Shown here one piece after another: positions 3,307 to 46,021 of a stretch of DNA of 64,000 nucleotides. Both the position numbers and the translations under genes were made by a program. The notes beneath the pieces are model-generated. The model ran no database searches, had not been told where the DNA came from, and worked only from the letters and a program-made list of their open reading frames with translations. Source of the stretch: Gaiellales bacterium (lineage in GTDB: Bacteria; Actinomycetota; Thermoleophilia; Gaiellales; SKUG01); assembly GCA_038212015.1 (NCBI GenBank), contig JBBQUY010000003.1, positions 4,237 through 68,236 of the forward strand, given 5' to 3'. The stretch's first letter is position 1. Each line of letters opens with the position of its first letter.

Positions 3307-4305
3307 TCATGCCGCGGGCGGGTTCACCGGCTCCTTCGAGCCACCGTCGGCGCGACCGGCCACGAGCGTGTCGAGCAGCGTGTCGAGCAGGTCGACCGCC
3401 TTCTGCGTGTCGCGAGCTGCGCCGGGAACGTCGACGCCGTTGAAGCGTCCGTCAGGGCTCGGCTTCTTCGCGAGCTGCCAGTTGGCGTCCTCGAGCGATG
3501 CGTCCGCAGCGCGCAGCGTCGAGACGACGTCCGCGGGGGTGGACTGCATCTGGCGCTCAAGGCGCTCCTGCGCCGCCATGTTCGTCTTGAAGGCCTTGAT
3601 GCGCACGGCCTTGGAGCTCTCGTCACCCTTGTCGGTGGGGGAGACGGTGCTGATGATGCGCGCCGCCTCGCTGGCCAGGCGCAGGCCCTCGGTGACGTCC
3701 TCGACGAGCGTGCGGCTGCTGACCGGCGGCTTTGGATCGACGGGAGGCTTGGGTTCGACCGGCGGGCGAGGATCGACGGGCGGCTTCGGGTCGATCGGCG
3801 GCTTGGGCCGCACTGCCTGCACGTCGCGGATCACGCCGTCGACGAGCGCCCAGCTGCCGCCGACGATGGCTTCGACGCCGGAGTTGGCGTCGAGCTTGAT
3901 GCTGCCCGTGCGGGGCTGGTCGGCTCGACCGTACTCGTTGGTGCGGTACTTGAAGAAGCCGAACTCCGGCTTGTCGGCGCGGCCGAGCACCTCGATCTGT
4001 GCGCGGTCGGCACCGAACGAGTCCTCGCGGACGAAGCGCTTCGTCCAGACCGGCTGCATGAGCTCGTGCGCGGAGAACGTGTCGCCCTGACGGGTGACGG
4101 CGAACGCGCCGCCCTGCTGCTGCGACAGGCCGGCGGCCCCGCTCAGTGCGTCGTCGAGCGACGTGAAGCCGGTGCCGGCCTGCGAGCCGAGGTAGAGCGG
4201 CTCGTCACGCTTGAAGCGGATCTCGAGCTCGCCGACCTTCTGGCCAGCGCCAGGCAGGTTGGTGGTGACGGTACGGACTGCGGCGGAGGAGAGGGAGGCA
4301 ATCAT
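3307..4305 (-). CDS. orphan two-domain protein (unknown alpha/beta domain, PKPPVD linker, helical domain)
   Basis: High GC3 ORF; C-terminal domain is closely similar to that of 19724-20563 (LEDANWQLAKKPSPDGRFNGVD identical). Confidence 0.85.
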   Translation of the reverse strand: MIASLSSAAVRTVTTNLPGAGQKVGELEIRFKRDEPLYLGSQAGTGFTSLDDALSGAAGLSQQQGGAFAVTRQGDTFSAHELMQPVWTKRFVREDSFGADRAQIEVLGRADKPEFGFFKYRTNEYGRADQPRTGSIKLDANSGVEAIVGGSWALVDGVIRDVQAVRPKPPIDPKPPVDPRPPVEPKPPVDPKPPVSSRTLVEDVTEGLRLASEAARIISTVSPTDKGDESSKAVRIKAFKTNMAAQERLERQMQSTPADVVSTLRAADASLEDANWQLAKKPSPDGRFNGVDVPGAARDTQKAVDLLDTLLDTLVAGRADGGSKEPVNPPAA

Positions 4306-9997: not shown

Positions 9998-11029
9998 ATG
10001 AGTGCTGCACAGAACGCCAGCTCTTCGCTGCCGACACCGTTCGGCAAGGCAACTGCCGCCGCCGGTTCACTGACGAACGCCGGCACGCTCAACCTGCCGA
10101 ACCGCGGCAACACCGACGCGCAGCCCATGAGCGCGCCACCGCGCACGCAGATCCAGCAGACGTGGGACAGCTTCCGCGCGCACCGCGCCGCCTTCATCGG
10201 ACTGTGCGTGCTCATGACGATGATCGTCGTCTGCACGCTCGGCCCGTTCGTGCTGCAGGACCCCGACGCGATCGACATGCAGGTGCTCGGCTATCAGGCA
10301 CCGAGCGCGTCGCATCCGCTCGGTACCGACGCGATCGGTCGCGACGTGCTGTCGCGCCTGGTCAACGCAGGGCGCACGTCGCTGGCGATCGGTTTCAGCG
10401 TCGCGATGGGCGCCGCACTGATCGGGTCGATGGTCGGTGTCAGTGCGGGCTACTTCGGCGGGCGGATCGACTCCGGGCTGATGTGGTTCGCGAACGTGAT
10501 GATGTCGATCCCGTCGATGCCGCTGCTGCTGACCGTGGCGGTCATCGTCGCGAACGAAGAATCCAAGGTCGGGCCAGTCATCCAGAAGGTCCCGGAGTGG
10601 GCGCGCATCGCGCTGGTGCTCATCATCCTGGGATGGATGGGTGTCAGTCGCGTCGTGCGCTCGCAGGTGGTGAGCCTGCGCAACCAGGAGTTCGTGGAAG
10701 CCGCGCTCGCGCTCGGCGGCACGCACAAGCGAGTGATGGTCGTGCACATCCTACCGAACTGCGTGAGCGTGCTCGCGGTGTTCACCACCCTCGCCGTGTC
10801 AGGCGCCATCATCGCCGAGAGCGCACTGAGCTTCCTCGGTTTCGGCGTGCAGCCGCCGACCGCTACGTGGGGCAACATGCTCGCGGAGGGCAAGGGGCTC
10901 ATCACGATTCTGCAGTACTGGTGGGCGGTCTGGTTCCCGGCACTGGCGATCTTCGCCACCGTGCTGAGCGTCAACTTCATCGGCGACGGCGTCCGCGACG
11001 CGCTCGATCCCAAGGCGCAGAAGAAGTAG
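9998..11029 (+). CDS. peptide ABC transporter permease (OppC/DppC)
   Basis: HPLGTDAIGRDVLSR, EFVEAALALG, ESALSFLGFG, GDGVRDALDPK. Confidence 0.93.
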   Translation: MSAAQNASSSLPTPFGKATAAAGSLTNAGTLNLPNRGNTDAQPMSAPPRTQIQQTWDSFRAHRAAFIGLCVLMTMIVVCTLGPFVLQDPDAIDMQVLGYQAPSASHPLGTDAIGRDVLSRLVNAGRTSLAIGFSVAMGAALIGSMVGVSAGYFGGRIDSGLMWFANVMMSIPSMPLLLTVAVIVANEESKVGPVIQKVPEWARIALVLIILGWMGVSRVVRSQVVSLRNQEFVEAALALGGTHKRVMVVHILPNCVSVLAVFTTLAVSGAIIAESALSFLGFGVQPPTATWGNMLAEGKGLITILQYWWAVWFPALAIFATVLSVNFIGDGVRDALDPKAQKK

Positions 11030-11078
11030 CACCGCCGGTCGCCGCGCGCGAGCGCGTGCACCGATCGATCCGCATTCC

Positions 11079-11110
11079 CGAAAGGCGCACGGTCTCGTGC
11101 GCCTTTCGAG
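11079..11110 (+). terminator. hairpin, probable terminator of the opp operon
   Basis: CGAAAGGCGCAC-ggtctc-GTGCGCCTTTCG. Confidence 0.6.
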
Positions 11111-11226
11111 TGCCGTCGAACGGTGGGTGGGCTTCCTGGGACCTGCGGCGTGCGGAAGTCGTGACGAAGTGGTGTGTCACTCGTGGCATTCGTGACACTT
11201 TCGTGACGAAATGGACGGCACGCTGG

Positions 11227-11275
11227 GAGGTGAAGCAATCCACTATCCCAGAGGGACAGTAGATGACCACACCTG
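11227..11275. repeat. 49-bp palindromic repeat family A, copy 1 (contains the ATG of the AbiEi-DUF559 gene)
   Basis: GAGGTGAAGCAATCCACTATCCCAGAGGGACAGTAGATGACCACACCTG; 41/49 identical to the reverse complement of 12847-12895. Confidence 0.85.
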
Positions 11276-12174
11276 CCAGTCGAGACGCCCGAATCGCTGC
11301 GATTGCGCACAGGCAGCACGGACTGATCACGACGGCGCAGCTGCGCGAGTGTGGTCTGAACGACTCCTCGATCTGCAAGCGCGTCCAGTCCGGCCGACTG
11401 CACCGTCTGCACCGTGGCGTGTACGCGGTCGGCCATGGGTCCGTCTCGCGCGACGCAACATGGACGGCCGCCGTACTGGCTGCGGGCGGTGACGCCGCGT
11501 TGAGTCATGTGGCAGCGGCGGCACACTGGCGGATCTGGCGACGGGGCGGTGCCGTCGAGACGACGCTGGTCGCGTCCCGACGCGCTCGGGGGATCGTCGG
11601 CGTGCGAGTCATCATGACGCGCACGCTCCATCGTCGGGACGTGCGCGTGCGCTTCGACATTCGCGTCACGAGCGTCGAGCGAACGATCGTCGACCTGGGC
11701 TCGATCCTGTCGCCGTGGCAGCTTGCCAACGTCATCCACGAGGCCGAGTTCCGTAATCGCCTGTCCCTGCGCGAGCTGGACCGCGTGCTGGTTCGCAATC
11801 GGGGGCGTGGTGCGGTGACGACGGTACGGCGCGCACTCGAGATTCGCTCGAGAGGAAGCTGGGGAACGCTCAGCGACCTTGAGGACGCGTTCCTGGCGAA
11901 GGCACACGGCCGCGGCCTCGATCCGCTCGTCAACTGTGCAGTCGACGTACTGGAAGGAACGGTCCGTCCGGACTTCTGCCGGCCGGAAGCCATGATCGCG
12001 ATCGAGGTGGACGGCTCACCGCACGGACGGGTCCGAACGAAGCGCGAGGACCGGGGTCGGGCAGCACAGCTCCGAGAAGCGGGATATGTGGTCATTCGGT
12101 GTGGTGCTGACGACATGGATGCATGTCTCGACGAGGTCGAGCGGCTGATGCGTGAGGCCGGCGTGCTCGTCTAA
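11263..12174 (+). CDS. AbiEi-family wHTH plus DUF559 (Vsr-like PD-(D/E)XK) domain protein
   Basis: IAHRQHGLITTAQL, LHRLHRGVYAVG, SHVAAA, VTSVERTIVDL, RPDF..IAIEVDGSPH..DR.R..LREAGYVVIR. Confidence 0.85.
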   Translation: MTTPASRDARIAAIAHRQHGLITTAQLRECGLNDSSICKRVQSGRLHRLHRGVYAVGHGSVSRDATWTAAVLAAGGDAALSHVAAAAHWRIWRRGGAVETTLVASRRARGIVGVRVIMTRTLHRRDVRVRFDIRVTSVERTIVDLGSILSPWQLANVIHEAEFRNRLSLRELDRVLVRNRGRGAVTTVRRALEIRSRGSWGTLSDLEDAFLAKAHGRGLDPLVNCAVDVLEGTVRPDFCRPEAMIAIEVDGSPHGRVRTKREDRGRAAQLREAGYVVIRCGADDMDACLDEVERLMREAGVLV

Positions 12175-12226
12175 CCGTGCGCAGCACGGGAACATGCAGG
12201 GATCTCGAGCGAGACCGGAGATCGCC

Positions 12227-12838
12227 ATGATCGACACGTCGACCTATCACCATCCTGCGACGCTGGAACTGACACGGCACCCGGAGGCGAACGAACTCAT
12301 CGCTCGCGATCCGGCAGCGCTGCTCATCGGATGGATCTGCGACCAGCAGGTACGAGTGCAGCAGGCATTCTCGGCTCCGTGGCACCTGGCCGAGCGGCTC
12401 GGCACGATCGAGCCGTCTGACATCGCAGCGATGCCGGTCGAACGGATCGTGGAGGCCTTCACCGAGCAGCCGCCGCTGCATCGATACGGACGTTCGATGG
12501 CGCAGCGCGTGCACGCCTGCATGAACGTAGTGGTCGACGAGTACGGCGGCGATGTCGAACGCGTCTGGCTTGAGGCAGAGGACTATGAGGACCTCGCGCA
12601 GCGGATCCAGGCGCTTCCGGGATTCGGCATCACGAAGGTGCCGGCGTTCATCGCGATGCTGGCGCGGCGGTTCGGGCTCGAGGTGAGCGGATTCGAGGGC
12701 GCGCTGCCGAGTTATGGCAGCCTGTCGGAGGTCGAGACATACGACGACCTGAAGACGTACCAGGCGCGCAAGCACGAGTGGAAGCAGGCACGCGTGCAGC
12801 GCCCCACCGGGGTGCGACACGTCACGCGTCTCGAGTAG
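12227..12838 (+). CDS. HhH-GPD-type base excision repair protein (actinobacterial family)
   Basis: DPAALLIGWICDQQV..AF.AP, PPLHRYGRSMA, ALPGFG..K..FIAMLARRFG. Confidence 0.85.
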   Translation: MIDTSTYHHPATLELTRHPEANELIARDPAALLIGWICDQQVRVQQAFSAPWHLAERLGTIEPSDIAAMPVERIVEAFTEQPPLHRYGRSMAQRVHACMNVVVDEYGGDVERVWLEAEDYEDLAQRIQALPGFGITKVPAFIAMLARRFGLEVSGFEGALPSYGSLSEVETYDDLKTYQARKHEWKQARVQRPTGVRHVTRLE

Positions 12839-12846
12839 TCGGGCGC

Positions 12847-12895
12847 GAGGTGTAGTCATCTGCTGTCCCAGTGGGAAAGCGGATTGCTACACCTC
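12847..12895. repeat. palindromic repeat family A, copy 2 (inverted relative to copy 1)
   Basis: GAGGTGTAGTCATCTGCTGTCCCAGTGGGAAAGCGGATTGCTACACCTC. Confidence 0.85.
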
Positions 12896-13058
12896 GCGAA
12901 AAAGCTCGCACGGAGCGAACTTCTGGTGAGGGCACGGCGCGCTGGCGCGCGCGGAATTGCATCGGGGGCCCCTGGCGTGGGCCCCCGACTGGCGTAGCTA
13001 CTACCTTCGCAATGTGTATGTGTGCGGCGCGTGGCGCCGTGGCACTGCGGCGTATGCG

Positions 13059-13472
13059 TCAGACCGCGACGGGCAGCAGGACGGGCAGGACGCCGTCGGC
13101 GGTGGCGACGCTGACGATGCGCGGTGAGTACTCACCCGGTTCCAGGCGCATGGCGGCGGCCCAGTCGAGCTCGGGGCCGACGGTCGCGACGAGGTAGCCG
13201 GTCGAGCTGGCGAGCACGACATGCTGGATGCCGGAGCGTCCGGCGAGGATCCATGCGACGCGGTCTGCGACAGCAAGGTCGGACGCCTCCTCGAACACCT
13301 GCAGCACGCAGACCTCCACATCCGTGCCGGGCGACATGCCCCGGAGGATGCCGATCGCAAGGCCCTGCAGCGCGTGCCATCCCGTGATGGGCGCGTGCCC
13401 GGGAAGGTCGGCGAGCTCGGCGTGCTCGGTGGTGGGAACGATATGGGCGGCTGCGGCGTGATGGGAGTTCAT
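13059..13472 (-). CDS. hypothetical protein
   Basis: High GC3 ORF preceded by a sigma-28-like motif. Confidence 0.7.
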   Translation of the reverse strand: MNSHHAAAAHIVPTTEHAELADLPGHAPITGWHALQGLAIGILRGMSPGTDVEVCVLQVFEEASDLAVADRVAWILAGRSGIQHVVLASSTGYLVATVGPELDWAAAMRLEPGEYSPRIVSVATADGVLPVLLPVAV

Positions 13473-33808: not shown

Positions 33809-33886
33809 GCGCTCCTGCCCGAGCTTCGTACGTTGTCGTCGGTATGCGACGACCTTGTACGAAGCGCCGCGGCGGGGCGTCGTGAG

Positions 33887-45736: not shown

Positions 45737-45786
45737 GAGGTGTAGCAATCTGCTTGCCCACAGGGACAGCAGATTGCTATCACCTC
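45737..45786. repeat. palindromic repeat family A, copy 3
   Basis: GAGGTGTAGCAATCTGCTTGCCCACAGGGACAGCAGATTGCTATCACCTC. Confidence 0.85.
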
Positions 45787-45823
45787 GCATCAACGGCCCA
45801 CCACAAGCGCACAACGGCGCGCA

Positions 45824-45928
45824 CTGGTTGCGATGACTGCGACCAGATCGCACGCAGCGCAACCACATGTCGCTGAGCCGACTGGGTGGTTACACGGACT
45901 GCGATTTCATCGCAGTCAGAACGACCAC
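45824..45928. repeat. doublet of 43-bp palindromes (family B), 62-bp period
   Basis: TGGTT..GACTGCGA..TCGCA..ACCAC units at 45824 and 45886. Confidence 0.8.
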
Positions 45929-46021
45929 ATGCGGGCGCACGGGTCAGGGAGCCGAGGCCAGGAGGTTGACTCGCCATGCACGCCTGCCGCCCGTCGCCGC
46001 TCGCGGTGCTACCCTTTCGGC

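Follow-up and report, generated by a model that had tools for sequence, protein, structure and literature searches.

Repetitive extragenic palindromic (REP) elements are among the commonest repeats of bacterial genomes, and many genomes that bear REP-like sequences have no REP-associated tyrosine transposase (RAYT). To our knowledge, this transposase is the only enzyme that has ever been tied to REP elements; the hallmarks of its genes were reportedly set out by Nunvar in 2010 and by Bertels and Rainey in 2011. Genes annotated as DUF559 or 'orphan AbiEi' are very common in Actinobacteria, and we know of no function for them. Published accounts describe families of REP elements and of REPINs (doublets of two inverted REPs) with their associated RAYT genes (PMC3116915, PMC3337134), a terminal GTAG or CGTC tag conserved among REPs (PMC3733652), and insertion sequences that target REP elements, such as ISPpu9 (PMC8450116). 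In the open-access literature, we found nothing that links DUF559 or AbiEi fusions with palindromic repeats. Here we analyze a 64,000-nucleotide (nt) stretch of the draft genome of a Gaiellales soil bacterium (G000:C3:4237-68236; hereafter the window), in which a gene for an AbiEi-DUF559 fusion protein is bracketed by two copies of a short palindrome. Our leaning, held with modest confidence, is that each such gene and its palindrome family form a cognate unit resembling the RAYT/REPIN arrangement, in which the nuclease acts on and propagates its own palindromes. We propose more tentatively, with doubt slightly outweighing belief, that these units represent a new class of repeat system, in which an AbiEi-like winged helix joined to a Vsr-type PD-(D/E)xK nuclease creates and maintains REP-like families, with ten or more diversifying pairs side by side in one genome.

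The G000 draft comprises 3.49 Mb in 176 contigs (68.7% G+C, 86.7% complete, 4.2% contamination). We compared it within a set of 41 genomes that includes G000 itself and its closest relative, the sister taxon G003 (64% complete). G000 encodes at least ten AbiEi-DUF559 paralogs, seven of which are detected by Pfam alone, and carries at least nine REP-like palindrome families. These families are intergenic, 45-53 base pairs (bp) long, and present in 8-33 copies each. Families A-G were defined by nhmmer (8 copies of A, 19 of B, 23 of C, 30 of D, 33 of E, 29 of F and 28 of G), and H, I, J and K were added by an unbiased self-BLAST. Family H required the latter approach, as nhmmer seeded with one of its copies gave a single match. 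A strict hairpin census (stem of at least 16, at most 2 mismatches) uncovered families B, C and H and missed family A, because the stems of family A carry conserved mismatches. By self-BLAST, families H and I number 25 and 20 copies (for example, C10:38760-38805 and C2:62400-62474), and H resembles two joined subfamilies.

Seven of the ten paralogs are bracketed on both flanks by a palindrome family: A at the window locus (C3), B on C52, C on C36, D on C4, E on C118, G on C38 and J at C9b. Each bracketing family adjoins one paralog only, and none lies near a second. For the pairing of family F with the paralog on C141 only the downstream side can be checked, because the contig starts inside the gene, and the pairing of family K with C17 is weak. 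Among the 233 copies of 11 non-coding families, same-family neighbors 500-4000 nt apart occur only seven times, and all seven enclose an AbiEi-DUF559 gene. We also compared the 700-nt flanks of each gene with one another and found flank repeats at 9 of the 25 intact paralog loci of G000-G008, which represent the genus and its family, at E<=1e-6, and at 16 of 25 at E<=1e-4. This set leaves out L032, which gave no hit, L023, whose flank is short, and a pseudogene present as three fragments; the window locus (L006) is scored as a miss because a neighboring HhH-GPD gene pushes its second palindrome past the 700-nt flank.

These counts bear on the possibility that the link is passive, that is, that palindromes serving as terminators, insulators or recombination hot spots pile up around horizontally acquired islets, of which AbiEi-DUF559 genes are a common cargo. 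Indeed, the window locus occupies a variable islet, the palindromes follow stop codons as terminators do, and different families share intergenic regions (A and B at 45737-45932; A and H on C27). Such a link is nevertheless improbable in our judgment. The seven same-family brackets enclose this gene family and no other gene, each gene has a family private to it, and among 400 random open reading frames (ORFs) of 250-400 amino acids only 1 shows flank repeats at E<=1e-6 (7 at E<=1e-4). Moreover, the Endonuclease_1 and DUF5122 genes that form the cargo of the islet in the relatives G004 and G005 are not seen with such brackets on the oppC side, the only side examined.

The window locus illustrates the anatomy of one unit and is composed of the following elements, together with a solitary copy of the same palindrome further downstream:

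11077..11110 (C3:15313-15346), plus strand: G+C-rich hairpin found by hairpin scan, about 50 nt past the stop of an OppC-type permease ORF (9998-11029); kept at the orthologous locus of G003
11158..11210, plus strand: cluster of CGTGAC/GTCAC hexamers (11160-11165, 11176-11180, 11191-11196 and 11202-11207), operator- or promoter-like and common to the paralog family
11227..11275, plus strand: family A copy 1, decayed; a Shine-Dalgarno-like GAGGG and the start ATG of the nuclease gene both fall in its 3' arm
11263..12174, plus strand: AbiEi-DUF559 gene, 303 amino acids, assigned by Pfam, PADLOC, alignment, structure model and Foldseek
12227..12838, plus strand: HhH-GPD-type base-excision repair gene, 203 amino acids from the ATG at 12227; cargo within the bracket, present at the G003 locus too
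12847..12895, minus strand: family A copy 2, starting 8 nt past the HhH-GPD stop and inverted relative to copy 1
45737..45786, plus strand: family A copy 3, solitary, 4 nt past a TGA stop and followed by two family B palindromes

A first-pass annotation of the window, made from its sequence, had recorded three copies of a palindrome, two of which bracket the AbiEi-DUF559 and HhH-GPD genes in opposite orientations and differ by a compensatory stem change, with the start codon of the nuclease gene inside the first and no AbiEii toxin gene adjacent. Each of these observations holds. We recover the copies at 11227-11275 (plus strand), 12847-12895 (best on the minus strand) and 45737-45786 (plus strand), as does a repeat scan of the window (scan labels D12 and I4). 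Strand-specific scores support the inverted orientation: with nhmmer, copy 1 scores 54.8 bits on the plus and 24.0 on the minus strand, and copy 2 scores 61.9 on the minus and 42.2 on the plus strand; with a covariance model, the best and other strands score 70.9 and 42.6 bits for copy 1, and 77.3 and 63.3 bits for copy 2. The ATG (11263) of the 303-amino-acid ORF falls within copy 1. The compensatory change maps to alignment columns 20 and 38, which form an A-T pair in copy 1 and a G-C pair in copy 2; over the 10 aligned family A copies, this pair is AU in three, GC in three, GU in three and AC in one, and both-sided changes occur in 4 of the 15 predicted stem pairs. Copies 2 and 3 fold at -20.3 kcal/mol (z -8.4) and -22.6 kcal/mol (z -8.7), respectively, and in neither case do any of 200 shuffles fold as well.

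The genes next to the nuclease gene encode the OppC-type permease and the HhH-GPD protein. The latter scores below the Pfam cut-off (22.8 versus 26.2 bits) and above that of TIGR03252 (147.7 versus 136.5 bits). The profile of the AbiEii toxin (PF08843) matches only C94 and C119 in the entire genome; neither contig holds a paralog, and no match lies beside any of the ten. The hairpin at 11077..11110 is probably the terminator of the permease gene, and we therefore place it outside the unit. A consensus promoter and terminator scan of the locus returned no sites, missing this hairpin because it has no T run. Rfam gave one chance miRNA match over 10900-13100, below threshold (18.8 versus 100 bits), and Pfam gave nothing for the ORFs beside copy 3 or for the 137-amino-acid ORF that bounds the islet.

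The protein at the center of the unit has two parts. Pfam assigns AbiEi_4 (PF13338, E 9.1e-12) and DUF559 (PF04480, 23.5 bits against a cut-off of 20.6), PADLOC matches AbiEi over residues 7-184 (E 2.1e-26), and NCBIfam holds no family for it. Residues 1 to ~200 form an AbiEi-like winged helix and C-domain, and residues ~200 to 303 a Vsr/I-Bth0305I-like nuclease. In an AlphaFold model (pLDDT 94.3), Foldseek aligns the first part with the whole AbiEi antitoxin fold (6y8q, E 5.5e-6) and Rv2827c (1zel), and the last 100 residues with the catalytic domain of the homing endonuclease I-Bth0305I (3r3p; TM 0.66 on target) and with Vsr (1cw0 and 1vsr). A profile search of the PDB adds the DUF559 structure 3hrl (E 6.6e-9), the nuclease domain of PvuRts1I and, weakly, 3r3p (E 0.17). 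Six residues (E207, D237, E248, D250, H254 and D263) are invariant across 24 paralogs that are only 23-38% identical to the window protein. By analogy with these nucleases, the E/D/E-x-D/H residues are predicted to be catalytic, and their conservation despite such low identity points to a working nuclease under selection.

The protein shares its N-terminal 200 residues and an operator-like motif upstream with the AbiE type IV toxin-antitoxin systems, but in place of an adjacent AbiEii nucleotidyltransferase it has a nuclease domain fused to it. With Vsr, DUF559 proteins and the PvuRts1I nuclease domain it shares the fold and the catalytic motif; unlike these, it carries an extra DNA-binding module, is encoded by a multi-copy gene with a private repeat family for each copy, and has no implied role in T:G mismatch repair. 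I-Bth0305I, whose fold its C-terminus shares, is a selfish-DNA nuclease built on the Vsr scaffold, of the EDxHD Vsr-like kind. I-Bth0305I, however, resides in a group I intron of a phage and has a single cognate gene as its homing target, whereas the gene described here is free-standing, AbiEi-fused and tied to a scattered palindrome family and not to one allele.

If gene and palindromes form a unit, they should also keep company across genomes, as the first-pass annotation had suggested checking in close strains. Homologs of the protein (E<=1e-10) occur in 8 of the 41 genomes including G000, all within one family-level group, and in none of 32 genomes from four other families of the order. 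For the three families that we examined (A, D and G), gene and palindrome family co-occur. A covariance model of family A finds copies only in G000 (8 loci) and G003 (5 loci) among the 41 genomes, and these are the two that hold the ortholog; two of the G003 copies were part of the model and match by construction, unlike the other three. Family D has about 30 loci in G000 and 12 in G003, single weak matches in G005, G006 and G017, and none in G001, G002 or G004. Two of the G003 copies flank a 72%-identical ortholog of the C4 paralog (at G003:C16), and G003 is the only genome with this ortholog. Family G (about 30 loci) is confined to G000, with no copies in 20 other genomes, and its gene has no ortholog in G001-G005 (top match 38%). 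Of the three, it is family G that carries information here, since it sets G000 apart from the sister taxon; the incompleteness of G003 could hide a gene, but hardly 30 repeats.

At the G003 locus, the order of elements is the same as in the window (oppC, hairpin, motif, palindrome, gene, HhH-GPD, palindrome), and the two flanking palindromes of G003 share variants that distinguish them from the G000 pair, in keeping with co-divergence. Past copy 2, G003 has four tandem GC-rich units of ~32 nt (L007, ~610-740) where G000 has one (window 12930-12960), and similar short tandem arrays follow the paralogs at C17, C118, L008 and L016. The scattered copies turn over between the sister species. The family A copy between tsaE and tsaB in G000 is absent from the orthologous site in G003 and G002, and one G003 copy occupies a position where G000 has none.

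The surroundings of the gene are variable as well. The stretch from the oppC stop to the stop of a conserved 137-amino-acid minus-strand ORF (13059-13472), that is, window 11030-13058, is an islet with four different gene contents in five congeners (compared with L046, L047, L048 and L007). G000 and G003 have the AbiEi-DUF559 and HhH-GPD genes, G002 has another paralog (32% identity) on the other strand, G004 has two Endonuclease_1 genes, and G005 has a DUF5122 gene. In each, a palindrome of the genome's own kind stands right after the oppC stop, and we found no clean empty allele with a single palindrome among the five congeners.

Where the family A copies lie informs what they might do. The genome-wide search that the first-pass annotation had proposed returned 8 loci (iterated nhmmer, third-round E-values of 1e-10 to 1e-15), all between ORFs and all singletons: after xseB, in the tsaE/tsaB-rimI gap, between a Y-family polymerase gene and a major facilitator superfamily (MFS) gene, between convergent ORFs on C58, beside other repeats on C27, and at the three sites in the window. 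Most lie just past stop codons, between convergent genes or within an operon.

AbiEi-type proteins are DNA-binding autoregulators that act on inverted repeats. The palindromes might accordingly be operators through which such a regulator controls its own gene and the genes beside the other copies, several of which concern DNA repair; the first-pass annotation had offered this regulon as an alternative. Copy 1 overlaps the ATG, and repair genes stand near 4 of the 8 copies. We give this explanation very little credence, and the regulon proposal finds no support in our analysis. Five of the eight copies lie at most about 50 nt past a stop codon or between convergent genes and not at promoters; the sister families number 19-33 copies each, frequently arranged as tandem pairs; the occupancy of housekeeping sites by copies differs from one sister species to the other; and a separate GTGAC-type motif occupies the position where an operator is expected. 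A regulon of repair genes in particular was rejected on the same grounds. The repair genes in question are a UDG-family (uracil-DNA glycosylase) gene about 500 nt upstream, xseAB, the Y-family polymerase gene and the HhH-GPD gene (copies on C5, C56 and C11, and window 12227-12838), and their proximity may be chance. We also considered integron attC cassettes; with no integrase search run, we discounted them on the ground that the palindromes are dispersed between housekeeping genes.

The GTGAC-type motif is part of a recurring layout. The usual unit consists of one or more palindromes, 80-130 nt containing GTGAC/GTCAC hexamers (often around a GCGCGCA core), the ORF from ATG to stop, and again one or more palindromes. 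For 15 of 25 paralogs, the 200 nt that precede the gene contain at least two hexamers, compared with 62 of 2000 random 200-nt windows, and the fuller motif occurs upstream of 6 of 25 paralogs, compared with 1 of 2000 windows. This motif is common to paralogs of only ~30% identity and is a better candidate for an AbiEi-type operator than the palindrome. The GTGAC...GCGCGC...GTGAC motif of the paralogs also stands at the start of contig C119 (1-217; 1893-2186), which carries one of the two AbiEii (PF08843) matches, and it may be a general AbiEi-type operator.

At the other end of the gene, the downstream palindrome often overlaps the final 7-28 nt of the ORF. We had entertained the idea that the repeat starts exactly at the stop codon and dropped it once 150 nt of the ORF were included, as the repeats extend those 7-28 nt into its end. 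In the subclade nearest the window protein (L009, L015 and the G003 ortholog), the upstream palindrome either separates the GTGAC motif from the start codon or covers that codon, as it does in the window. A palindrome at the gene start is thus a recurring design and not an accident of a single locus. With the ATG and the GAGGG stretch both in the 3' arm of copy 1, an mRNA that spans this copy could mask its own start.

Several observations weigh against the view that the nuclease propagates its own palindromes. First, bracketing is an association, and it is not evidence of who moves whom. Second, the correspondence is incomplete: paralog C9a has no family, and families H and I (two or three families) have no gene in this 86.7%-complete assembly of 176 contigs. 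Third, proteins that are 53-57% identical (C141/C118 and L025/L029) carry unrelated palindromes, although the 69%-identical syntenic pair L011/L016, whose homologous palindromes differ by a compensatory stem change, speaks for co-divergence. Fourth, the G003 nuclease gene is broken by frameshifts and a TGA, yet five family A copies persist there. Fifth, family A is small, and the pair that flanks its gene is only 71% alike (rank 22 of 28 pairs); copy 1 is a decayed palindrome, folding at -8.6 kcal/mol (z -1.8) with 13 of 200 shuffles as good. Sixth, the co-occurrence test covers few, related genomes, and with G003 the sister taxon of G000, family G alone says anything beyond common ancestry. 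Finally, the flank copies of families B, C, D and G share one orientation and are among the most alike of their family (rank 2-10 of 171-435 pairs), and the C4 flank repeat continues for 18 nt outside the palindrome core, in unique sequence. Together, these direct, near-identical copies and the C4 extension look like a local duplication made at insertion.

This last group of observations is what one would expect if the AbiEi-DUF559 gene were itself the selfish element, a free-standing nuclease gene of the homing or insertion type that inserts into existing palindromes (or pairs of them) and duplicates its target, with the palindromes spreading by other means. The frequent tandem palindrome pairs could act as landing pads, the oppC-side islet is variable and has an own-kind palindrome in each genome, and the C-terminal fold matches a homing endonuclease (3r3p). 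We consider this unlikely, for four reasons. A family that serves as a landing pad should also occur in genomes that lack the gene; family G and its gene, however, are both found only in G000, and families A and D occur only alongside their orthologs. Nine genes sit in nine different families of about twelve, for which the chance is ~0.015 under random landing and equal family sizes. The closest pair of paralogs within a genome is 57% identical, which gives no hint that genes have jumped recently, whereas gains are seen among the repeats. And no other candidate enzyme for the repeats was found in a search of the genome for Y1_Tnp: the PF01797 profile has no match in G000, within its 86.7% completeness, and no RAYT was found.

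A further point in favor of genes landing in palindromes, and against propagation of the palindromes by the nuclease, comes from more distant homologs. Using a 6-sequence alignment, we collected 80 loci from named Solirubrobacterales and Thermoleophilia assemblies, 76 of them usable. Flank repeats occur at 7 of 76 at E<=1e-6 and at 10 of 76 at E<=1e-4, leaving 66 with none, compared with 1 and 2 of 76, respectively, in a mismatched-pair control. Therefore, the link is strong in the genus and sporadic elsewhere, where most such genes have no bracket. The first-pass annotation had called for a test of this association across Thermoleophilia; it holds within the genus and, at 7 of 76 loci, is weak outside it. 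In three Solirubrobacterales metagenome-assembled genomes (L114, L115 and L122), the same 47-nt palindrome covers both the start and the stop of the AbiEi-DUF559 ORF, with the GTG start and the TGA stop both read from one and the same GTGA of the loop.

Considering the evidence in full, we still prefer the view that each nuclease acts on and propagates its own family. The first-pass annotation had proposed a RAYT-free, REP-like system in which the DUF559 nuclease recognizes or spreads its own hairpin. Its RAYT-free, REP-like part is borne out by the private bracketing families, the 7 of 7 brackets, the 3 of 3 co-occurring families and the lack of a Y1_Tnp match; binding, cutting and spreading by the nuclease we infer. 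The same annotation had named copies unrelated to DUF559 loci as an observation that would speak against it and, taken literally, the six other family A copies are of this kind, none of them being near a DUF559 gene. We do not read them as a refutation, because scatter away from the gene is typical of REP-like families.

The likeness to REP/REPIN-RAYT systems extends to several features. The palindromes are short, imperfect and intergenic and form several families in a genome, each with tens of copies; every family has one single-copy gene with copies of that family on its flanks; gene and family share their inheritance; and relatives differ by gains and losses of scattered copies. By contrast, the enzyme is not of the HUH/Y1 type, PF01797 being absent from both protein and genome, but an AbiEi-like DNA binder joined to a PD-(D/E)xK nuclease of the Vsr-like type. 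At 45-53 bp, the palindromes exceed REPs in length, and their copies number in the tens, not the hundreds. Unlike the inverted doublets of REPINs, family A copies are singletons, non-A families often form tandem pairs, and multi-copy clusters consist mostly of direct tandem copies (11 of 12 in family D by best-strand call, although strand calls on near-palindromes are weak). The host, moreover, is a Thermoleophilia-type actinobacterium, whereas REP/REPIN-RAYT systems are known from proteobacteria. As the RAYT-REP hallmarks are present and the defining enzyme is replaced by a fusion of a winged helix-turn-helix with a Vsr-type domain, we describe the system as one that works like REP-RAYT and not as a member of it.

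REP-targeting insertion sequences such as ISPpu9 and miniature inverted-repeat transposable elements (MITEs) offer a second comparison, as they also place mobile genes inside palindromes and have short non-autonomous copies that outnumber the gene. Unlike these elements, the protein has no DDE, HUH or serine transposase domain, and there are no short target duplications, the flank repeats being 25-113 nt long. Unlike insertion sequences, each family has one diverged gene and not several identical copies.

From these features we suggest how a unit might operate. The AbiEi-like winged-helix part would recognize its own palindrome, and the Vsr/I-Bth0305I-like domain would nick or cut there. Repair or copying of the cut could then seed new palindrome copies at other intergenic sites and, now and then, the whole bracketed unit may move along. 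Expression would probably be self-limited by the upstream GTGAC-type operator, and in the nearest subclade probably a second time by the palindrome over the ribosome-binding site and ATG.

The window also contains palindromes whose cognate genes lie elsewhere in the genome:

32165-32214, 45821-45870, 45883-45932, 50331-50380 and 50393-50442: five copies of family B
33823-33863 (C3:38059-38099): one copy of family G, with its cognate paralog on C38

The cognate gene of the 19-copy family B is on C52 (17122-18075), with one copy upstream and three downstream past a small ORF; the family has outer arms GTGGTTG/CAACCAC around a GACTGCGAT core. Apart from these palindromes, the window has tandem repeats of 15-nt and 18-nt period, in multiples of three, at 2153-2267 and 3721-3810; they probably represent a repetitive coding region.

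The AbiEi-DUF559 loci provide a clean and countable case in which the hallmarks of RAYTs are displayed by a quite different nuclease. They offer a testable function for the AbiEi-DUF559 fusion, a widespread type of protein that has had no known role, and account for some of the annotated 'orphan antitoxins' that have no toxin. The at least ten diverged pairs of protein and palindrome in one genome form a natural set in which to follow the co-evolution of DNA recognition. Should the genes instead land in palindromes that spread by other means, they would still be new, as homing-type genes that use scattered palindromes as landing sites. If each nuclease does propagate its own family, a kind of mobile DNA not seen before would have its enzymes among the DUF559 and 'orphan AbiEi' genes.

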